Shown here piece by piece: positions 2,264 to 31,897 of a stretch of DNA of 64,000 nucleotides. The notes under the pieces were generated by a model. It was given only the letters and a program-made list of their open reading frames with translations, ran no database searches and had not been told where the DNA came from. The stretch comes from an uncultured Clostridia bacterium (GTDB lineage: Bacteria; Bacillota; Clostridia; TANB77; CAG-508), in the NCBI GenBank assembly GCA_947588945.1, contig CANPZY010000002.1, positions 29,592-93,591 of the forward strand, given 5' to 3'. Made by a program: the position numbers and the translations under genes. Within the stretch, counting starts at the first letter, position 1; each line of letters opens with the position of its first letter.

Positions 2264-3211
2264 ATGATAGAATTTGAAAAGCCAAATATTAAGTGTGTAG
2301 AAATTGACAAAGTAAGAAACTATGGTAAATTTGTATGTGAACCATTAGAAAGAGGATATGGAATTACTATAGGAAATTCATTAAGAAGAATTCTACTATC
2401 ATCACTACCTGGAAGTGCTATAAAAAGTGTAAAAATAGAAGGAGCAGAACATGAATTTACTACAATACCAAATGTTGTAGAAGATGTTCCAGAACTAATT
2501 ATTAATCTTAAAATGGTAAGATTTAAATTAGATAAAAATGAAGAAAAAACACTTAGATTAGACTTTAAAGGTGAAGGTGAAGTTAAGGCTGGAGATATCA
2601 TTACTGATGGAACAGTAGAAATACTTAATCCTGACTTACATATTGCTACAGTATCTAAAGGAGGAAGTTTACATTTAGAAATGGTAGCAGATATGGGAAG
2701 AGGATACAATACTGCTGAAAAAAATAAAACACCTAATCAACCAATAGGAGTAATATCAATTGACTCAATATACTCACCAGTAAAAAAAGTAAACTATTCA
2801 GTAGAAAATACTAGAGTTGGTCAAATGGTTGATTATGATAAATTAACAATTGAATTATGGACAGATGGTAGCTTAGAACCTTATGAAGCATTAAGCTTAG
2901 CTGCAAAGGTTTTAACAGATCACTTAAGTTTATTTGTTGATTTATCAGAGGCCGCAAAGAATACTCAAATAATGGTTGAAAAAGAAGAAGATCAAAAGGA
3001 AAAAATACTTGAAATGCCAATTGAAGAACTTGAATTATCAGTAAGATCATTCAATTGCTTAAAGAGATCTGGAGTATCAACAGTAGGTGATTTAACAAAG
3101 AAAACAGAAAATGAAATGATGAAAGTTAAAAATCTAGGAAGAAAATCATTAGAAGAAGTAATTGAAAAATTACATGCATTAGATTTAGACTTAATGAAAG
3201 AAGAAGAATAA
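2264..3211 (+). CDS. rpoA: DNA-directed RNA polymerase subunit alpha
   Basis: [25 protein letters not shown]... N-terminal domain and helix-hairpin-helix C-terminal domain ([21 protein letters not shown]). Confidence 0.95.
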
Positions 3212-6127: not shown

Positions 6128-7606
6128 ATGAGGAAAGTAAATTATAAGGAAAAAGGAATCACATTAATAGCATTAGTAATCACAATAATAATTCTATTAA
6201 TATTAGCAGGAGTAACGCTAACAACAGCATTGAGCCAAAACGGCTTATTTCAAAGAGCAAAAATAGCAGGAGAAAATTATAAAAGAGCAGAATCAGATGA
6301 GGCGGAAAAATTAGATGAATATTCAAGTGAGATTGATAAAATAATAAATGGAGAAGGAACATCATCATCAGAAGGAAAAATAAAGATAAATGAATTTTCA
6401 GTAAATGGAACAGATGTAACAGATGTACCTATTCCAGATGGCTTTGTACATGTAGGAGGAACGATAAACGACGGATATGTAATATCAGATGCACATCAAG
6501 ATGCAAACAAAGGAGCCGATTCAGATGAATTAATAGGAAATCAATTTGTGTGGGTACCAGTAAAACAAAATCAAAAAATAACATTAAAGGTGACAAGTGA
6601 GGAAGATATAACAAGTATAGTAGTAACAGATCCATATGGAAAAAAAATTTTAGAAAGAAATAATGAAGGAAAAAACTACAATAATGAAGAAATAGAGCCA
6701 ACAATAAATGGAGAATATAAAGTAAAAGTAACAACAAGTACAGGAGAGACAAGTAAATTATTAGAAGTATATAGTTTATATGCACAAAATTTTTGGATAA
6801 CGGAAAAATTAATTCTTGATTCAATTTTTGAAAGTATGAAAGCTATGGTAGAATCTCAGGGAGGAACAATAGAAGAACTTTTAGACGAAATGGATATGAC
6901 AAAAGAAGAATTAATAGAAGAATATATAGTCATGACTAAGAATGTAGAGAGCCTAGATGAATTTCTTGCAAAAATCAAAGCTCCAACTTTTTTCAAAGAA
7001 ACAGAAGATTATAAAACCAACGTAAATAAATACGGAGGATTTTATATAGGAAGATATGAGGCAGGAGTTTCATCAGCAGAAACAGATAGAACTGAATCAA
7101 GTAGTAATACGGAACAATTAGTAATACAAAAAAATAAATATGTCTATAATTATATATCATATGATGATGCATTAAATGAAGCACAAAAATATGCAACAAA
7201 TGTAGAAACAAATGCAAAAAGTTCATTATTAACTGGAGCAGCATGGGACAGAACATTAGGTTGGTTATATGAAACAGGAGATAAAACGATAGGAAAATTG
7301 ACAGTAGACAGTATGAGTTGGGGAAATTATAATGTTAATACTTTTTTTGAAAATACAGAAAATCCAAAAAAAACAGGAGAAAGTGAAAAAACAAAATCAA
7401 AAAATATATATGATTTAGCAGGAAATGTATCAGAATGGACTACAGAAGTCAATACCTCTGGAAGCGGTTGGCTTACTAGAGGCGGTATGGAGGGTGAAGA
7501 TGAAATTGTATCCGCTCGTGCAAATTTGCGCTCCTATTATGATTCCTCAAATAGAAAAACAAACATGGAAGTAGGTTTCCGCGTCGCTTTATATTTGTCG
7601 GACTGA
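6128..7606 (+). CDS. secreted pilin-like protein P1: prepilin-type leader/TM (KGITLIALVITIIILLILAGV) plus a C-terminal FGE-sulfatase-like C-type-lectin-fold domain
   Basis: N-terminus resembles a class III (type IV pilin) signal but with Ala at +5. The C-terminal domain has FGE-family motifs: ISYDDALNEAQKY, LLTGAAWDRTL, NIYDLAGNVSEWT, TRGG, VGFRVA. The last ~170 nt are GC-enriched. Confidence 0.7.
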   Translation: MRKVNYKEKGITLIALVITIIILLILAGVTLTTALSQNGLFQRAKIAGENYKRAESDEAEKLDEYSSEIDKIINGEGTSSSEGKIKINEFSVNGTDVTDVPIPDGFVHVGGTINDGYVISDAHQDANKGADSDELIGNQFVWVPVKQNQKITLKVTSEEDITSIVVTDPYGKKILERNNEGKNYNNEEIEPTINGEYKVKVTTSTGETSKLLEVYSLYAQNFWITEKLILDSIFESMKAMVESQGGTIEELLDEMDMTKEELIEEYIVMTKNVESLDEFLAKIKAPTFFKETEDYKTNVNKYGGFYIGRYEAGVSSAETDRTESSSNTEQLVIQKNKYVYNYISYDDALNEAQKYATNVETNAKSSLLTGAAWDRTLGWLYETGDKTIGKLTVDSMSWGNYNVNTFFENTENPKKTGESEKTKSKNIYDLAGNVSEWTTEVNTSGSGWLTRGGMEGEDEIVSARANLRSYYDSSNRKTNMEVGFRVALYLSD

Positions 7607-8163: not shown

Positions 8164-9756
8164 ATGAAGAAAGTAAATTATAAGGAAAAAGGAATCACAT
8201 TAATAGCATTAGTAATCACAATAATAATACTACTAATATTAGCGGGAGTAACATTAAATACAGCAATAAATCAAAATGGATTGTTTCAAAGAGCAAAGGA
8301 TGGAGCAGAAAAGTATATATTAGCACAGACAAAAGAAGAAGAAGTATTAAAAGAGTTAGAAAAATATATAGAAAGTGTAGGGAGTGAAGAAACAAATGGA
8401 AAATTCGAAAACAATGGAATAGACAAAACCCATGATGGAGCGAAATATGATCCGGTAGTAACAGATGATGGAATGTGGATAATATATAAAGATATAGATA
8501 CGAAGACAACAAAAGTAAATGTATATGTAGAATCAAAATATTATTATCCATCATTTGGACAATTTTATGTAGAAAAAGTTTGTTTGGCAGGAATCCTATG
8601 TAGTTATGGGTTACCGGTTTACAGTTTCTCTGACTTATCAGATTTTTATACGCAATTGATGATACTGAAATCCGAAGGAAGTTTAATATTTGATGAAGAT
8701 TATATAAGACAAAGAAAAGAAGAAATGAAAGTAGGAGTATTTTTTGAAGAATTATTAGAAAAAATGGGTGTAGATTTATATGACGCATATCAAGGGCTTG
8801 GAGAAATGATGATATCCGGGAAAGAAGATAACAATTTAGATGATTATATTAATGAACATGAAGAAGGAGAATTATTTTTAAATGGTATATCGTTGGCGAC
8901 GAGAAATAAACAACCAAATTTTTCTTATGAAAAATTAGAAACGACTTATAATAAGTTATATGGAGATAGAAAAGGTTTAGAAATACCAGAAAAAGAAAAA
9001 GAAAACACATATAAAATAAAATTACCAGATGGAAAAGAAGAAACAATAGATGGAACAGATTTATATAAAGCAAAATTTAGATATGTAACAACTAAAAATG
9101 AGAAAGTAGATATAGAAATAACCAAGAACGAGGATACACCACAAAAAATTACTTATGACAAAGTTAATAATATTAGTAATTGTATAGTAAAGGAAGAAGA
9201 ATACACATATACTTATAACTGTTTACCTTTTTTAGATGAGGGAAGTGGAGTTGGGATTTTTGATATAGAATCGATGATGAATGGAAATATAGATTACGAG
9301 AAAGTAGAAGACGGATTATTAAAATATAGATTTAACTTATGTGGATGGAATGTGAGTCGTAATGATATGGTTGAAGTTCTGTTTGATGGAGACGAAGAGA
9401 AATTAGAGGATTGGAAGTCTGTGAATACTGAATGCAAATACGTTGTTAATGATGAGCCTGTAACATGCATGGTTGGAACTTATTATGGGTCGACGTTAAA
9501 TTTTGATAGTATGAATATACCTGAGACAGTGGTTTACATGTTTGATACTTTTAGATCTTTTAATAATTATGGATCAAAAATAAAAGAGATTAAATTACCA
9601 AAGTCGTTAAAATATGGATCATATGTGTGTTATCCAAGTAAGAATATGAAATTTAAAATCTATGAGGGTTCGCTTACGAATAGCCCATGTTTTTTCGATG
9701 GTTATAAGCTAGAAGATATCGGGGGTAATGAGAATGATGTAGAGATATATAATTAG
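8164..9756 (+). CDS. secreted pilin-like protein P2 (530 aa) with a different C-terminal module
   Basis: First ~45 aa nearly identical to P1 and P4 (MKKVNYKEKGITLIALVITIIILLILAGVTLNTA...); the remainder is unrelated and Cys-rich. Confidence 0.7.
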   Translation: MKKVNYKEKGITLIALVITIIILLILAGVTLNTAINQNGLFQRAKDGAEKYILAQTKEEEVLKELEKYIESVGSEETNGKFENNGIDKTHDGAKYDPVVTDDGMWIIYKDIDTKTTKVNVYVESKYYYPSFGQFYVEKVCLAGILCSYGLPVYSFSDLSDFYTQLMILKSEGSLIFDEDYIRQRKEEMKVGVFFEELLEKMGVDLYDAYQGLGEMMISGKEDNNLDDYINEHEEGELFLNGISLATRNKQPNFSYEKLETTYNKLYGDRKGLEIPEKEKENTYKIKLPDGKEETIDGTDLYKAKFRYVTTKNEKVDIEITKNEDTPQKITYDKVNNISNCIVKEEEYTYTYNCLPFLDEGSGVGIFDIESMMNGNIDYEKVEDGLLKYRFNLCGWNVSRNDMVEVLFDGDEEKLEDWKSVNTECKYVVNDEPVTCMVGTYYGSTLNFDSMNIPETVVYMFDTFRSFNNYGSKIKEIKLPKSLKYGSYVCYPSKNMKFKIYEGSLTNSPCFFDGYKLEDIGGNENDVEIYN

Positions 9757-11428: not shown

Positions 11429-13327
11429 ATGAGCAAAATTAAATTTATAAAAAAGAATCAAGATGAAAGTGGTATTACTTTAGTTGCATTAGTAGTTACT
11501 ATCATAATTCTTTTAATATTAGCAGGAATAACACTAAATGGAGCATTAAGTGCTAATGGACTATTTATAAGGGCAAAACAGGCTGCTGAAAAATATAAGA
11601 ATGCTGAAGAAATTGAAGAAGAACAATTGAGAGAAATTGAAAAACAACTTGACAACAAGAATTCTATAAATTCAGTTATTAAAGTAAAAGGTGTCGATTT
11701 TGACAGTAATGAATCAATAGGTAACTGGAAATTTAGTATATGTAAAGATAAAGAATGTCTTCAACCATTAGGAATCGATATTAAAGTTGGAGATAGTGGT
11801 GAAGCTGATTGTTCATCTCTTATAAAAGAAGCTGGTACCTATTATGTTGGTGTTACAGAACCTCCTGAATATAAAGATTTACCATTCGAATTATTTGAGT
11901 TTAACGTTGCAGATATAGAAGAAGAGCAAGATCTTGTTATTAAATTTAAAGGAGAAAGTTTGTCTGGAACAGGCCCATATCAAGGAACTTTCAATGGCTC
12001 AGATTCACCTGCCGAAAATACAGAATTTGATAAGAATGTTTCTTTACAAATCAGTTTTGGTGATTATGTTGAAATAAATCAATATAATTATTCTTCAAAT
12101 GGTAAAAAATTCTATCCTATAGATGACTCATATAGTTTAGCTCAAGAATTAAAGAATTCAAATTTTGAAATTGATTTTTATAAAATAGCTGAGTGGGATT
12201 CAGGCAAAAGTGAAGTTGTTTTAGATAATAATTTTAAAGACTTAAATAATGTTGATACATCTGATTTAGATACTGGTTCTACAATAGATCCTATTCTAAC
12301 AACAAGAATTAAAAATATAATAATAAAAAATAAATTGAAACCGACTGTTTCATATCAATATAGTGGTGAAAATATGTTACAATTAGAAAATGACACACAA
12401 CTAAAGAAGAAAGATTTCTACTTAATAGTACCACATGCTTCAAATAGTGAATTCGGAAAGGCATATACTAAATATTATGAAGTAGATTTTATACCTGCAA
12501 TTATTTCGTTTGTATATGCAAATGAAAATGGAGATAGTTTATATGATGTGTCTCTCGAAATAGATGCTGTAAATGCAAATAATATATTCTCTGATATTAA
12601 GATAGTTAATAACATAACAAATACTCCAGAAGGATCTTTTAAGACACAAGATTTTATATATGAAATTACTGCTGAACTTAATGGAGAGCATATGTATGAT
12701 GATATTATAGCAACTGAATGTGAAAATGAAGGAGAAAATACTTATTCAGCTGACAATTTGCCAGTTGGTTTAGAATATAGAATTTTCCCTTTATATTATG
12801 GAAATCAATGTTATCTTACTTCTGCAGATGAAGTAACAAGTGTAGTAATGAATGAAGAAGAAAACAATGTAGAATTCAATTTTGAATATTCTAATAATGG
12901 TAATAAAGATATATCTATACTTGAATATGAAGTTAAATATAACGATTATTACGAACAATGGGAAATTGAGTCACAAAATAGAAATCTTATAAATGATAAA
13001 ATTAATATAATTGATAATGGAGATGATTCAGAGAAAAATTCATTAAAAAGCATAGAAATAAAAAATACTGATTCAACTGATAAATATATCCGTTTTAAAA
13101 TCTTATCTTCACTAAATTTAGTATATTATTGTTCTGAGGAGGATAAATGGGTAAATAGTGATGAATTCTGGTATTATTCAAGCCAAGTTTCATCAAATGG
13201 CACAACTGGAAACTTACCTTTTGATATTTCTTTATCGGACTACGATGGACAACCATGTACTTATAATATAGTAATTATAGTAGAGTCAACAAATGCAGAT
13301 GATGAAGGAAATGCAAATTGGGAGTGA
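11429..13327 (+). CDS. secreted pilin-like protein P3 (632 aa)
   Basis: N-terminus ...DESGITLVALVVTIIILLILAGITLNGALSANGLFIRAKQAAEKYK is homologous to the P1/P2/P4 leader module; the C-terminal region is unrelated. Confidence 0.65.
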   Translation: MSKIKFIKKNQDESGITLVALVVTIIILLILAGITLNGALSANGLFIRAKQAAEKYKNAEEIEEEQLREIEKQLDNKNSINSVIKVKGVDFDSNESIGNWKFSICKDKECLQPLGIDIKVGDSGEADCSSLIKEAGTYYVGVTEPPEYKDLPFELFEFNVADIEEEQDLVIKFKGESLSGTGPYQGTFNGSDSPAENTEFDKNVSLQISFGDYVEINQYNYSSNGKKFYPIDDSYSLAQELKNSNFEIDFYKIAEWDSGKSEVVLDNNFKDLNNVDTSDLDTGSTIDPILTTRIKNIIIKNKLKPTVSYQYSGENMLQLENDTQLKKKDFYLIVPHASNSEFGKAYTKYYEVDFIPAIISFVYANENGDSLYDVSLEIDAVNANNIFSDIKIVNNITNTPEGSFKTQDFIYEITAELNGEHMYDDIIATECENEGENTYSADNLPVGLEYRIFPLYYGNQCYLTSADEVTSVVMNEEENNVEFNFEYSNNGNKDISILEYEVKYNDYYEQWEIESQNRNLINDKINIIDNGDDSEKNSLKSIEIKNTDSTDKYIRFKILSSLNLVYYCSEEDKWVNSDEFWYYSSQVSSNGTTGNLPFDISLSDYDGQPCTYNIVIIVESTNADDEGNANWE

Positions 13328-26784: not shown

Positions 26785-26911
26785 TTTGTAGATATGCAAC
26801 AATTAATAATTACAATAAATTAAGTATAGAAATAAAATTTATAATGATATTGATTTATAAATTTTAATTATAAAATAAAATCATTAGAAAAATTATTTTT
26901 ATTTAATTAAT

Positions 26912-27086
26912 TTAAAAGATTAATAAAAAATAAATATATAATATATATAGCATAATAAAGTCAATTATAGAATAAAAAGAAATAAAAAAATATTACAAAA
27001 TTGTAAAGAAATTTAATTATAAACTCTTGCAAAATCATTGATATAAATGAATTGCAAGAGTTTATAATTTTTTATTAATCTTTTAA
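26912..27086. promoter_or_regulatory. candidate invertible promoter switch P4: 19-bp inverted repeats (26912..26930 / 27068..27086), 137-bp spacer with a perfect 12-bp palindrome overlapping TTGATA-N18-TATAAT
   Basis: Arms ttaaaagattaataaaaaa / ttttttattaatcttttaa; the spacer contains aaactcttgcaa-N18-ttgcaagagttt. Confidence 0.4.
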
Positions 27087-27209
27087 CTTAATAAAACATA
27101 TAGAAGTAAAGTCTTATAAAGTATTAACTTAATACTTTAAAAATAATAAAATTAATATAAATAATAAATATAAAAAAGCAAATAATAAAAAAGAAGGAGA
27201 AAGCGAAAG

Positions 27210-28394
27210 ATGAGAAAAGTAAATTATAAGGAAAAAGGAATCACATTAATAGCATTAGTAGTAACAATCATAATATTACTAATATTAGCAGGAGTAACAC
27301 TAACAACAGCATTGAGTCAAAATGGATTATTTCAAAGGGCAAAGATAGCAGGAGAAAAATATAAAGAATCAGAAGAAGATGAGACAGAAAAATTAAGGGA
27401 AGTAGAAAAAGAGATAGATAAAATAATAAATGGAGAAACTCCACCAGACCTACCAAATCCTCCAACGCCACCATCAGGCGGAATAGGAAGTAGTGACATA
27501 GCAGGAAATTTAAAAGAATATCAAGGAAAATATGTAGACATAGGTGTGGATATAAATGGAAATGAAAGTACAGCGGATGATTGGGAATTATTTTATGCAA
27601 CAGATGATAGAATATTTTTAATAGCAGCAGATTGTGTGCCAGTAACCAAACTAGGAGAGTGGAAGGTGATAGGAGAGAACGCAACAAATACTAATGGTTT
27701 CCAACAAGATTCTAGCAATACATATGATGTTTACTGGCCGAGTGGTCCTACGGCATTCTTAACTTTGCCAACAATAGACAACTTTTTGAAGACAGTAATG
27801 CATGAAGAATTTGATTTGTATCTAGTTAAGAAAAAATATAGTGGGATGGCGGTATCACAATTATTAAATACAAACGTATGGGATGAAATAAAAAATGAAG
27901 CAGATAAGGTGCATCCAGATTGTGTAGACTTTGCAATCGGAGGACCAACATTAGAGATGTGGTGTGCAGCATGGAATGAGGCAGTAGGAACAGATGATGC
28001 TACATTTAAACAAATACAACCAGACGGTTCTGGTGAAAATGGATATTGTGTAGGATGTACTGCAACGGGTAAGACTGAACAAAATAGTTTATATATGGAT
28101 GGAAATACGAGTGGACTAGAAAGTAATTTAACAACATTAGGAAATGATTATAAAACATTTTTCCCACACGTTGGCAGTGCTAAGTTGGGTGGAAGTTTGG
28201 GATATTGGTTGGCTTCGCCTTCCTCTGGCCACCTCGTTATGTCCTTGATGAGTGTCCGCTATGACGGCCGCGTGACCTACGCCGACTATAACGTCATCGG
28301 CTTTGGGGTTCGTCCGGTAGTTTCTCTACGATCTGGAGTCCAAATAGTAGAGAGGGCAGAACCGAAGAACATATACGACTTGGCGACTGAGTAA
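27210..28394 (+). CDS. secreted pilin-like protein P4 with a C-terminal DUF1566/C-type-lectin-fold domain that carries a DGR variable repeat
   Basis: Leader MRKVNYKEKGITLIALVVTIIILLILAGV, Pro-rich linker PPDLPNPPTPPSGG, then a C-terminus ...GYWLASPSSGHLVMSLMSVRYDGRVTYADYNVIGFGVRPVVSL whose DNA (28207..28325) matches the AAC-rich template repeat at 28824..28939 apart from substitutions at template adenines. Confidence 0.75.
   Translation: MRKVNYKEKGITLIALVVTIIILLILAGVTLTTALSQNGLFQRAKIAGEKYKESEEDETEKLREVEKEIDKIINGETPPDLPNPPTPPSGGIGSSDIAGNLKEYQGKYVDIGVDINGNESTADDWELFYATDDRIFLIAADCVPVTKLGEWKVIGENATNTNGFQQDSSNTYDVYWPSGPTAFLTLPTIDNFLKTVMHEEFDLYLVKKKYSGMAVSQLLNTNVWDEIKNEADKVHPDCVDFAIGGPTLEMWCAAWNEAVGTDDATFKQIQPDGSGENGYCVGCTATGKTEQNSLYMDGNTSGLESNLTTLGNDYKTFFPHVGSAKLGGSLGYWLASPSSGHLVMSLMSVRYDGRVTYADYNVIGFGVRPVVSLRSGVQIVERAEPKNIYDLATE
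28207..28325 (+). repeat. DGR variable repeat (VR) at the 3' end of P4
   Basis: A 17-nt identical 5' anchor (ggttggcttcgccttcc) and a shared 3' end (gggggttcg.ccggtag.ttct). In an 81-nt cleanly aligned stretch, about 16 of 19 mismatches fall where the TR has A (AAC versus GGC/CGC/GAC/TAC/GCC/GTC/ATC). Confidence 0.7.
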
Positions 28395-28454
28395 TTGGGA
28401 TAACGTTGATTGCATTCTGATAGGCCTCGTGTCCAACCGCGCTCCGATGTATAA

Positions 28455-28739
28455 AGCAATTTTATAGATAAAAAAGAAATAGAACTAAAAAATAGAATAA
28501 GAACAAATACTTATAATGTTTTAGAAATTGCATATGAAGCAAATATATTAGAAGATGTAGAATTAAAGAAACAATTAATTTGTAAAATAATAGCTAAAAT
28601 AAAAATAGTAGATTTCTTATTAAGTTTAAGCTATGATAAAAAATTAATAACTCAAAAAAAGTATATTAAATTAGGAGAAAGATTAGACGATATTGCTAAA
28701 TATGCAAATGGATGGTTAAAATCTTTCAAAAATGGATGA
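28455..28739 (+). pseudogene. avd: 5'-truncated accessory variability determinant (Avd, four-helix-bundle protein); no start codon
   Basis: Open frame ...NRIRTNTYNVLEIAYEANILEDVELKKQLICKIIAKIKIVDFLLSLSYDKKLITQKKYIKLGERLDDIAKYANGWLKSFKNG* matches the C-terminal helices of the Avd/TIGR02436 family; there is no Met and the N-terminal helix is missing; it abuts GC-rich sequence following the VR. Confidence 0.55.
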
Positions 28740-28823
28740 TATTTTTGAATAGTATTTTATGGGGCATGGTTGTATGGACTCGTTTGAGTTGCGTTAATTT
28801 TTGATTGCGCGTGTGATTTAGTT

Positions 28824-28939
28824 GGTTGGCTTCGCCTTCCGCTAACAACTCTAACAACTTGATGAATGTCAACTATAACGGCAACGTGAACAACAACGAC
28901 TGTAACAACAACAACTTGGGGGTTCGCCCGGTAGATTCT
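28824..28939 (+). repeat. DGR template repeat (TR), AAC-codon rich
   Basis: gctaacaactctaacaacttgatgaatgtcaactataacggcaacgtgaacaacaacgactgtaacaacaacaacttgggggttcgcccggtagattct contains 17 AAC codons and is collinear with the VR. Confidence 0.7.
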
Positions 28940-29227
28940 GAAAAATTTTGGTTGTGTAGACCATTTGTTGCACAAGAGAAGCTTCAGTTCAGAAACAAAC
29001 CGTTGTCCTTTAGTACAGATTTAAAATCGCTGTGCTATAAATAAAAATAGATAAATATGTTTGTTAGTAGGTATTTACCGAAGGGGAGCATTATTTTAGC
29101 ACTATTTTATCTAGTAATCAGTTTAGATTGCTAGTTTTTTATTTGCTTTTTATTTTATTGTTACTTAAATCTTAATTCTTCTAAATGTTTGTAACATATC
29201 ATACTGCTAACAAGACTATTAATAGGC

Positions 29228-29803
29228 TCAATACCGAGAATAATATAAGTATCTTTTCTTCTTTAATCTTCTGTTTACGGTTCTATATTTTGCATATCTA
29301 CCACGACTATTTCTACCAACAAAAATAAAATTATTTGTATTTTTAAAAATCCTTGTTTTTCTATTTAATTTTAATCCATCTTTTTCTAAAAATATTTTTA
29401 ATTGTTCTAAGCAATATTTTAAGTATGATTTAGATTGATGAAAAAGTAAGAAATCATCTTGATATCTGACATAATACTTTATTTTTAGTTCTTCTTTTAT
29501 AAAATGATCCATATCATTTAAGTAAAATATAGCTAAAACTTGGCTTGTCATATTACCGATACTAAGGCCTTCATCATCACTATCAATTATATTAAATACT
29601 ATATTTAGTGCATCTTTGTCTTTTATTCTAGTTTTTAACTTCTTTTTTAAAATATCATGGTCAATACTTGCAAAGAATTTACTTATATCTGCTTTTAAAA
29701 TATAATAATCTTTATATTTTATTTTACATTTTGGTAAAAAGATGGAGATAAGAAAATGGAGAGAATTTATATAAACAGAGAATGTTGTATAGCCTACACT
29801 GTA
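29228..29803 (-). pseudogene. DGR-type reverse transcriptase, 5'-truncated (fingers motifs 1-2 missing), opposite strand to the TR
   Basis: Minus-strand open frame ...YILKADISKFFASIDHDILKKKLKTRIKDKDALNIVFNIIDSDDEGLSIGNMTSQVLAIFYLNDMDHFIKEELKIKYYVRYQDDFLLFHQS...LKLNRKTRIFKNTNNFIFVG shows RT motifs 3/A, B, C (YxDD as RYQDDF) and the thumb. A stop lies 5' of the KADISKFF region and no RT-like sequence is found further upstream in any frame. Confidence 0.75.
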
Positions 29804-29989
29804 TTAGCATTACATGAAATTTTTTGTAGTTCAAAAAAAAGAAAAAACACTAAAAGATGTTATATCTGAAATTAGAGTCATGTTTGAATTATATACTGAT
29901 GAAAATGAACTAATGAAATTAGCAGAAGATATATTAAAAAAAGAAGGAAAAATAAAGTAATAATAGATAGAGAGTGTGAAAAAATTGGA

Positions 29990-30160
29990 ATGACAATAGA
30001 AGAATGTGCTGCATATTTGGGAGTGAGTAAACAATTGGTTGCAGAACTTGTAAAGTTAGATGATTTTCCTTGTATAAAATTTAAAAGGCGAATTCTAATA
30101 AATAAGCTTGGACTAAATGAATGGATGAATAATAATATTGGAAAATTTCTTGATTATTAA
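29990..30160 (+). CDS. excisionase/AlpA-family helix-turn-helix protein (56 aa)
   Basis: MTIEECAAYLGVSKQLVAELVKLDDFPCIKFKRRILINKLGLNEWMNN is an Xis-type HTH. Confidence 0.55.
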   Translation: MTIEECAAYLGVSKQLVAELVKLDDFPCIKFKRRILINKLGLNEWMNNNIGKFLDY

Positions 30161-30253
30161 AAAAATTTTTTCTCAAATTGTTTTAGTAAAATTCGATTTA
30201 TATAATTATTATATATTCCACAAGTCACAGTTTTACTAAAACGTTCTAAAGAG

Positions 30254-30695
30254 GTGATTTTAGTGAATAAAGAAGATGGTGACATAAAAATTATAAATAC
30301 GAAATCAGGTGATAAGAAAAGAAGAAATAAAGGTGAAGGAACAATTAGAAAAAAAGGTAATACTTATGAAGGCAGAGTTACAGTAAAAATACAAGAAAAA
30401 TCAAAGCAAATTTCTATATGTAATCGTGATAAAAGAATTCTTATAAAAAATAACTTAGAACCATATATTATGAAAGAAAACAAAATTAATAATCTAGAAG
30501 ATTTAATAGGTAAAAATGTATTTTTAACAAGTAATCCTAGGTCATGCTAGTATAGAAATGACAGAAAGATATACGCATTTAGTAGATGATTTAGATATAG
30601 AAGAAATGGAGAAATTACAAAACTTATATGACAAAAAATTGAAGACATTTTATAATGAAAAGGAACTTTGTGAAATATGTGGAGTTGTAGCATAA
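30254..30695 (+). pseudogene. tyrosine integrase remnant: N-terminal arm-binding domain joined directly to the extreme C-terminus (internal deletion/frameshift)
   Basis: The N-terminal frame GEGTIRKKGNTYEGRVTV is an Int_Tn916/AP2-like arm-binding motif. A different frame from ~30540 encodes LGHASIEMTERYTHLVDD..., the catalytic-Tyr C-terminal motif of tyrosine recombinases. The whole catalytic core in between is absent. Confidence 0.6.
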
Positions 30696-30988
30696 AATAA
30701 AGGGAAGATAAAGTGAAGAATAAAATTTTAAAAATAGAAGAAAGAGAATCGTTAAAAAGAAGCCAAAATAATAATATGATGTGTATACTTTGTGGAGATT
30801 TTGGTATATTAGATAAGCTAATATTAAAGTAAAATATTTGAAAAGGAGAGATGTCTTTTAAATAGATATTTCTCTTTTTTTGAATCTTAATTTGACAGAA
30901 TAAAAATAAATTTTTATAATTAAACTATATTAATTTAGGTTAAGGAGAAAGGGATTAATCAATTAAATAGATTAATATTTCTATATAA

Positions 30989-31897
30989 TTGATTGTACGA
31001 AAAAATATGCTAGAAAAATGTAATGTATGTCCAAGAAATTGTAAAGTTAATAGATTAAAAGGAGAAATAGGCTTTTGCAAATGTGATGATAAAATAAAAT
31101 TAGCACTAGTTTCTATACATAAGTTTGAAGAACCTTGCATTAGTGGAAAAAATGGTTCTGGAACAATTTTTTTTAGCAATTGTAATTTAAGATGTATATA
31201 TTGTCAAAACTATGAAATAAGTCAAGAAGGGGTTGGAAAAGAAGTATCTATCCAAAGATTAGCGGAGATTTTTATTGAGCAACAAAATAGAAATGTCAAT
31301 AATATAAATCTAGTAACGCCAACAATGTATATTTATCAAATAATAGAGGCTATAAAAATTGCAAAAGAAAATGGATTAAAAATTCCTATTATATACAATT
31401 CAAATGGATATGAAAATATAGAAACGATTAAGGCTTTAGATGGATACATTGATGTATATTTGCCAGACTTAAAATATTTTTATGATGAAATAGCAATAAA
31501 ATATTCAAGTGCACCAAATTATTTTGATATAGCAACTAAAGCAATACAAGAAATGTATAGACAAGTTGGAAAAGTAGAACTTGACCAAAATGGTATTATA
31601 AAAAAAGGAGTGATAATAAGACATTTGATCCTTCCAAACCATATACAAAATTCAAAAAATATTTTAAAATGGATAAAAGATGATATGCCAAATGGTGTAT
31701 TTGTAAGTATAATGGCTCAATATTTTCCAACATATAAAGCAAAAGAAGATAATTTTTTAAACAGAAAAGTTTCAAGAAAAGAATATAATGAGATACAAAA
31801 TTATATTTATAAAATTGGATTAGAAAATGGATATATACAGGATTTAGAAGATTGCGAAGAAGGATATGTACCAAATTTTAATTTAGAAAATGTATAG
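30989..31897 (+). CDS. radical SAM domain protein (PflX/activating-enzyme-like)
   Basis: CNVCPRNC...GFC N-terminal Cys motif plus the radical SAM motif SNCNLRCIYCQN. Confidence 0.7.
   Translation: MIVRKNMLEKCNVCPRNCKVNRLKGEIGFCKCDDKIKLALVSIHKFEEPCISGKNGSGTIFFSNCNLRCIYCQNYEISQEGVGKEVSIQRLAEIFIEQQNRNVNNINLVTPTMYIYQIIEAIKIAKENGLKIPIIYNSNGYENIETIKALDGYIDVYLPDLKYFYDEIAIKYSSAPNYFDIATKAIQEMYRQVGKVELDQNGIIKKGVIIRHLILPNHIQNSKNILKWIKDDMPNGVFVSIMAQYFPTYKAKEDNFLNRKVSRKEYNEIQNYIYKIGLENGYIQDLEDCEEGYVPNFNLENV

Follow-up and report, generated by a model that had tools for sequence, protein, structure and literature searches.

A probable, recently inactivated relic of an MSL/Avd-type diversity-generating retroelement in the chromosome of an uncultured Clostridia bacterium

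The prototype diversity-generating retroelement (DGR) is that of Bordetella phage BPP-1, with mtd and its variable repeat (VR), avd, the template repeat (TR) and brt, and in this phage efficient homing depends on a GC-rich hairpin downstream of the VR (PMC3240598). A further accessory gene, the MutS-like MSL, is described in the DGRs of Architecture D, which include the Legionella DGR (Wu et al., 2018, NAR 46:11, PMC5758913). MSL always co-occurs with avd. The TR and the reverse transcriptase (RT) gene may sit on different strands, and an inverted repeat downstream of the VR is present in only 34% of DGRs (PMC5758913). Here these systems are compared with a locus in a 64-kb stretch of the 94.5-kb contig CANPZY010000002.1 (assembly GCA_947588945.1) from an uncultured Clostridia bacterium; this stretch, called the window, is the portion of the genome covered by all window-wide searches. 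The locus is very probably a recently inactivated MSL/Avd-type chromosomal DGR, of which the target gene persists with a frozen VR while the remainder is a relic. It is an ordinary DGR relic of a well-documented kind and no new system.

The locus resembles the BPP-1 DGR in its adenine-specific differences between TR and VR, in having its VR at the target gene's 3' end, in an Avd protein of the four-helix-bundle type and in a GC-rich inverted repeat downstream of the VR. Unlike BPP-1, it is chromosomal, its RT gene is convergent, its relatives carry the additional MSL gene, the hairpin lies ~90 nt from the VR instead of adjoining it, the target is a prepilin-like surface protein and not a tail fibre, and the copy in the window appears inactive. 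Intact relatives share with Architecture D the 148-aa MutS_I gene, avd, TR, RT and a target with a C-terminal VR, whereas the window has lost MSL and the 5' parts of avd and RT, and its hairpin is eroded, which makes the locus a relic and not a working member of that group.

Relatives of the RT fragment number about 1,800, nearly all of them ~317 aa long and from uncultured gut Clostridia, including the CAG-343, CAG-508 and CAG-793 groups. The collection scanned for related genomes is without the window's own genome, and its best match has 80% identity. Comparison with related loci, proposed in an earlier note on this stretch as a way to an intact version of the element, yielded a complete cassette: the closest that is fully intact, locus L012, has an RT of 298 aa (84% identical over the shared region), an Avd of 116 aa and an MSL of 148 aa (MutS_I, E 4e-9). 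On one strand of L012 the order is target, GC-rich hairpin, MSL, avd and TR, with the RT gene converging from the other strand, and the same order is found in L008 and L098. Among 71 related loci of species-representative genomes in which avd could be located, the RT is convergent with avd and TR at 45 and collinear with them at 26. The opposite-strand RT, which the earlier note had read as a sign of decay, is therefore the native layout of the clade and not damage, and it has precedent in described DGRs (PMC5758913). Before the damage, the order in the window would have been target with VR, hairpin, MSL, avd, TR and convergent RT.

The target gene and the repeats of the window are as follows.

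27210..28394, plus strand: DGR target gene, intact, 394 aa, with the VR in its C-terminal variable domain
28205..28325, plus strand: VR, which aligns to the TR and lies inside the 394-aa open reading frame (ORF) near its 3' end
28822..28939, plus strand: TR, 118 nt with 35 adenines
28940..29000, plus strand: conserved stretch directly 3' of the TR, at the position of the 3' spacer of the TR RNA

VR and TR differ by 27 substitutions, 22 of which fall on TR adenines (binomial p = 4e-8, given 35 A in 118 nt) and five on other bases, and by one 3-nt indel. The locus thus shows the DGR hallmarks of adenine-concentrated differences and a VR at the 3' end of an intact ORF. The stretch that follows the TR, 96% identical to L001 and about 90% to L012 and L004, may represent the 3' spacer of the TR RNA. 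The indel sits in an AAC-rich stretch and could be RT slippage; it is not counted as decay, and its use as proof of decay was rejected because AAC-adjacent indels are described in DGRs taken as active (PMC5758913).

Three substitutions in the window TR (28902 A>G, 28918 T>G and 28927 T>C) are derived when judged against the outgroup TRs of L012, L004, L097 and L098, and the VR keeps the ancestral base at all three positions, indicating that no homing has rewritten the VR since those changes occurred in the TR. Non-A mismatches number 1-2 at loci with an intact RT versus 5-14 at loci with a truncated RT. For each VR of the family the best fit is its own TR, and this holds for the window VR when compared with the TRs of relatives; the proposal that it was written from the TR of another cassette was accordingly rejected.

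The inverted repeat downstream of the VR is eroded.

28411..28443, plus strand: eroded remnant of a conserved GC-rich inverted repeat, a hairpin or cruciform candidate, assessed by DNA folding energies

The folding energy of this segment is -0.4 kcal/mol in the window (z +2.8, worse than all shuffles), as against -14.9 in L012, -12.3 in L098 and -11.8 in L097. Hairpin stems of the relatives differ by paired changes, whereas the window copy has G/C-to-A/T changes on both arms; the hairpin is conserved in the clade, and the window copy no longer folds.

Between this remnant and the TR, the avd gene begins at a deletion junction.

28458..28470, plus strand: deletion junction 28469/28470, placed by alignments to L012 and L098 and read directly as ATTTTATAGAT joined to AAAAAAGAAATAGAAC
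28470..28739, plus strand: avd remnant, about codons 27-116 and the stop, without start codon

In the frame 28455-28739, similarity to Pfam bAvd covers profile positions 24-107 of 107 (E 2.6e-8). The frame contains no ATG, GTG or TTG, and in its avd portion is 86% identical to residues 25-115 of the 116-aa Avd of L012. True avd homology begins at 28470, and positions 28455-28469 are intergenic DNA that is in frame by chance; the 'NFIDKK' at this point resembles the 'NFPKKE' motif of Avd but is partly such in-frame intergenic DNA. When followed along L012 and L098, homology runs through the VR, the target stop, the GC-rich element and the intergenic stretch before MSL ('...CCGATGTATAAAGCAATTTTATAGAT') and then resumes within avd ('AAAAAAGAAATAGAACTAAAAAAT'), so that at 28469/28470 the intergenic DNA that would lie upstream of MSL abuts avd at about codon 27. 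One deletion of roughly 600 bp thus accounts for the loss of the whole MSL gene and the first ~26 avd codons. No match to MSL is found in the window, although L012, L098 and the majority of related loci carry the gene, and with neither a start codon nor its first helix the avd remnant is not a functional avd gene.

The RT gene on the other strand is likewise incomplete.

29228..29731, minus strand: RT remnant, residues 129-294 and the stop, matching RVT_1, with the breakpoint 29731/29732 read directly

On the minus strand, the frame 29228-29803 corresponds to RVT_1 profile positions 61-202 of 205 (E 7e-14), and its alignment to full-length relatives of 294-317 aa starts at residue 129, just before motif A (YILKADISKFF). 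The remnant keeps motifs A-E and the thumb, including SIGNMTSQ and YQDD, and its stop is placed as in the nearest relatives; 128 codons, including fingers motifs 1-2, are gone, so that the window holds no complete DGR-clade RT with motifs 1-7 and thumb. Membership in the DGR clade is indicated by SIGNMTSQ and by identities of 72-95% overall, and 77-95% over the shared region, to RTs that adjoin a TR and avd. The sole conventional ORF in the remnant, of 107 aa, starts at 29551, and motif A cannot be expressed from any conventional start codon. Beyond the breakpoint lie 82 unrelated nt and then a helix-turn-helix (HTH) gene. A tblastn search of the window with three full-length RTs found no RT N-terminal piece. 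These results agree with the earlier note, whose listed sequence features are all present and far beyond chance expectation; it had described an avd frame lacking a Met and the N-terminal helix, and an RT frame that begins at motif A with motifs 1-2 absent and no RT-like sequence upstream; the MSL deletion, the erosion of the hairpin and a frameshift in the HTH gene had gone unnoticed there.

The source of the window is a metagenome-assembled contig, and sibling contigs break inside the repeated N-terminal segment of the target gene, which raises the question of whether the truncations are chimeric joins made in metagenome assembly or binning. This explanation is extremely improbable. The same RT junction, HTH gene and integrase scraps recur in independent assemblies, in contigs of four samples (ERZ27249451, ERZ27249685, ERZ27249196 and ERZ27249400) at 99.5-100% identity, and the avd junction is present on a contig that shares 12.2 kb of identical sequence with the window; recurrence in four samples indicates that the junctions are genuine and common to a strain-level population.

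The damage to the RT gene is recent. Three states are found in the 90% protein cluster of the RT fragment: an intact form (P0243 and P0244, 294 aa, 88% identical to the window RT frame), a 182-aa form that is truncated at codon 108 and always lies beside rimP-nusA-infB (12 contigs), and the form in the window. The three lineages are about equally distant, with a synonymous divergence (dS) of 0.21-0.24 and pairwise ratios of non-synonymous to synonymous divergence (dN/dS) of 0.05-0.12. The possibility that the 182-aa truncation, as seen in L001 and L098, is the same event as that in the window was rejected: the breakpoints are 59 nt apart, the flanks differ (rimP versus the HTH gene), and the two lineages are separated by a dS of 0.2 with a dN/dS of 0.05. 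Along the window branch, the 167-codon RT remnant has accumulated 9 synonymous and 0 non-synonymous changes, a pattern with a neutral chance of about 1e-5, indicating that the RT was under purifying selection almost to the present and that its truncation is very recent. The suggestion in the earlier note that diversification stopped recently is thereby upheld, in the form of a recent inactivation.

Alternatively, the window might hold an orphan cassette served in trans, with an intact DGR elsewhere in the genome supplying RT, Avd and MSL and the VR still being diversified. Genomes of this lineage often contain several DGRs (two metagenome-assembled genomes gave two loci each), the intact RTs P0243 and P0244 of related strains are close to the window RT frame at the identity given above, and the TR with the stretch that follows it is 90-96% identical between cassettes. 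Nevertheless, the hairpin on the VR side is destroyed, the VR has not received the three TR substitutions, and the window VR matches its own TR better than the other available TRs. No VR variant is recorded, among target sequences from contigs that include the VR, as the sibling contigs of other samples do not; the intact RT alleles come from different samples than the window-type allele, with no co-occurrence seen; and the window contains no intact RT. Continued diversification in trans is, on this evidence, very unlikely.

In the preferred reading, that of a recently inactivated DGR, the deletion of ~600 bp removed MSL and the start of avd, and a second break removed the 128 RT codons. Mutations left the GC-rich inverted repeat unable to fold, and the three TR changes were never copied to the VR. 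The cassette would no longer make or integrate cDNA, and the intact target ORF would now encode a surface protein with a frozen VR. Several considerations weigh against this reading. The searches covered 64 kb of the genome, and intact RT, Avd and MSL genes elsewhere are possible. Non-A mismatches and AAC-adjacent 3-nt indels occur in DGRs that are taken to be active (PMC5758913). The role of the window hairpin in homing is presumed by analogy, since it lies ~90 nt after the VR and not immediately after it as in BPP-1. Finally, the pattern of 9 to 0 changes also fits continued selection on the RT fragment, yet no conventional start codon would express motif A.

Directly past the RT breakpoint, the window carries pieces of a gene pair of a kind known from integrative elements and prophages.

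29814..30160, plus strand: HTH_17 gene, excisionase/regulator-like by Pfam and PHROG matches, split into ORFs of 48 and 56 aa
30254..30550, plus strand: integrase N-terminal remnant (arm-binding region and SAM-like domain fragment, with an internal deletion), aligning to the N-termini of P0250-P0253
30537..30695, plus strand: integrase C-terminal remnant (LGHASIEMTERYTHL...), matching PHROG integrase families

Like the tyrosine-integrase/excisionase modules of such elements, this region has an HTH_17 gene upstream of an integrase with an arm-binding N-terminus and a C-terminal LGHxxxxxTxxYxH tyrosine motif; unlike them, it has lost nearly all of the catalytic domain, its integrase pieces are out of frame, its HTH gene is frameshifted, and neither att sites nor a match in the phage collection were found. 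The ORF 29990-30160 matches HTH_17 (E 3.7e-9) and PHROG excisionase/regulator families, in agreement with the AlpA/Xis-like HTH ORF of the earlier note, and the product is by family match a putative excisionase. The A-run at 29943-29948 is A5 in the window versus A6 in L107 and L108, which are from other samples, owing to a 1-nt deletion at 29948. With the additional A, 29814-29960 and the HTH ORF are joined in L107 and L108 into a single ORF of 115 aa, indicating that the window copy is frameshifted; the difference reads as a homopolymer slip in a mobile-element regulator gene, and the 56-aa HTH ORF, having its own ATG, might still be made. As for the integrase, P0251 carries PF14659 (Phage_int_SAM_3), and the C-terminal piece matches phrog_216 (E 1.6e-6) and phrog_1 (E 3.5e-6) and, below threshold, positions 154-169 of 172 of the Pfam Phage_integrase profile (E 0.03), with the Tyr motif retained. 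Part of the SAM-like domain and nearly all of the catalytic domain are lost, so that the window holds no integrase catalytic domain with the R-K-H-R-H/W-Y residues. The earlier note had taken this for an integrase N-terminus fused to the C-terminal end; both pieces are real, but they lie in different reading frames and form no in-frame fusion.

The same note had proposed that the DGR arrived on an integrative element. In that account an element with a terminal xis-int pair brought the DGR to this site as cargo, and all of it decayed afterwards. The HTH and integrase remnants lie only 82 nt past the RT breakpoint, their orientation would put int at the end of an element near 30700-30990, the G+C content of the target gene (38%) exceeds that of its surroundings (22-29%), and sister cassettes at different chromosomal sites imply some form of cassette mobility. 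However, an HTH or integrase homologue is found within 10 kb at none of 80 related loci and in none of the sister cassettes, which are 92-96% identical DNA and adjoin rimP/GtrA or a LytTR two-component system. The limit of homology on the left side of the cassette bears on the same question.

26901..27209, plus strand: promoter-side upstream part of the cassette, with the left homology limit at 26901 against sister cassettes at other chromosomal loci

Homology of L098 and L101 to the window reaches 26901 in both (blastn), and this boundary adjoins ordinary housekeeping genes both here and at the rimP locus. The same left boundary in differing contexts implies that cassettes have somehow moved or been duplicated, with no tie to the HTH-integrase element. 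Scans for tRNA genes and Rfam families around the locus, in which an att site or a known RNA was sought, found none, and a search for att-like direct repeats flanking 29732-30990 gave only chance-level AT-rich matches. The integrase and HTH region has no match, as protein or DNA, in the phage collection, and viral contigs contain hardly any members of the RT clade (3 distant matches versus 156 in genomes). Arrival of the DGR as cargo is therefore unsupported and, in our judgement, unlikely. The element scraps beside the RT breakpoint fit a later deletion equally well, and the simplest reading is a deletion with one end within an adjacent element and the other in the RT gene. The HTH gene and the scraps of integrase would be the remains of an unrelated integrative element, most of which the RT-truncating deletion probably also took.

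Sister cassettes, whose RT-TR-avd segment is 92-96% identical to that of the window, carry lesions of their own.

L098:9840-13460 (and L099): RT cut short at codon 108, beside rimP; avd frameshifted by a 4-nt duplication
L101:1713-4760 and L103:102-2770 (and L104): same codon-108 RT truncation; a different MSL-avd deletion; eroded hairpin; 14 non-A mismatches
L097:1-4465: RT intact; internal MSL deletion; +1 T-run frameshift in avd; two target genes flank the cassette
L002-L005 (L004:4650-8845): RT intact; MSL-avd fusion by deletion; split target gene

Coverage of L097 is only 4.5x, and an assembly error may be involved there. In L001 (816-817), a variant of the rimP locus, the 217-219 nt between the RT stop and the post-TR stretch (window 28997-29215) are gone, which reads as a further independent deletion in the cassette family. 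The lesions differ between sister cassettes and decay is thus common in the group; the lesions cluster at RT codons 108 and 128, at about MSL codon 18 and at avd codons ~26-31, and several breakpoints recur at the MSL and avd sites. Separately, at its MSL-avd deletion L101 (reverse complement of about 2990-3110) contains ~105 nt of unrelated sequence, in which TGTACAAAATTTTG / TGTACAATTTTGTACA motifs are repeated and which may be filler or the footprint of a small inserted element; L103 has the same right-hand breakpoint without this insert. L098 and L101, which share the truncated RT but have different VRs, were considered as a case of ongoing diversification. This was rejected, because divergence extends over the whole of their target genes (10-17%) against 99.6% identity on the RT side, as expected of a recombinant mosaic and not of recent homing.

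Five sister cassettes with independent, site-clustered lesions, together with an RT remnant without relaxed constraint, suggest a broader reading, in which the window cassette did not simply decay neutrally but is one case of a DGR switch-off that is recurrent and possibly selected in this gut Clostridia lineage and locks in a useful VR. It is regarded as improbable. A weaker variant of it would have orphan TR-VR pairs rewritten in trans by an intact paralogous RT.

The target gene belongs to a small family within the window. Its N-terminus is a prepilin-like hydrophobic segment, for which the N_methyl match is weak and below the Pfam threshold (E 0.0012), and its homologues, of 369-410 aa, in some cases match FGE-sulfatase or DUF6273. 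The exact protein is recorded as P0121, the sole member of its 90% cluster; a single version of the sequence is recorded, from 3 contigs, and its next relative shows 57% identity. The locus lies in an interval between an S4 and a radical-SAM gene, and exact-sequence look-ups of the target gene and of its radical-SAM neighbour returned no record. Genes at 6128-7606, 8164-9756 and 11429-13327 begin with the same 51-76 residues, 71-87% identical (MRKVNYKEKGITLIALV...), and with the target they form a family of prepilin-like surface proteins whose C-termini differ. The 492-aa member of this family ends in an FGE-sulfatase/C-type-lectin-like domain (...NIYDLAGNVSEWT...GFRVALY; Pfam E 6e-4), a fold typical of DGR targets, and has no match to the window TR. 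The N-terminal segment repeated in the family is a break point of metagenome assemblies. Upstream of the target gene, the intergenic region 26800-27200 is extremely AT-rich (8-15% G+C) and includes a perfect 18-nt inverted repeat (27015-27032 / 27052-27069). The regulatory region of the target gene probably lies in the stretch from 26901 onward, which is conserved with sister cassettes at other loci.

Outside the window, the RT genes of at least 4 species-level loci in related species share a split at codon 59/60, immediately before a conserved GPYN.

L033:9780-9800, L036:9780-9800, L044:9783-9803 and L091:1162-1182: split-RT sites, represented also by proteins P0008 and P0035

At these sites one additional C yields 'CC(T/A) C GG(T/A)'; read in the zero frame, the rare Arg codon CGG is followed by a stop 3-4 codons later, and the +1 frame continues the RT after the CGG site. 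Both halves are intact ORFs despite substantial protein divergence, and many synonymous sites in the flanks differ. The N-terminus of P0008 and P0035 is 'MFLGPYN', consistent with 'TCT C GGT' at the split site, and several RT calls of 236-243 aa (P0006, P0056, P0105, P0111 with 60 members, and P0112) begin at the first Met past it. These genes are candidates for programmed +1 frameshifting in a DGR RT, of the hungry-codon (Ty1/Ty3) type, which a literature search did not find described, and the shared CGG-creating one-base insertion is more unusual than the relic in the window.

Taken alone, the locus in the window matters little, being a dead copy of a known kind of element. Pipelines for DGR annotation may score a TR-VR pair with an RVT_1 match as a DGR that is active, or may regard an RT on the opposite strand with suspicion, and the locus could help to calibrate them. 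Its value is that of a cleanly dated case of DGR death, in which comparison with intact sisters places the deletions to the exact base.

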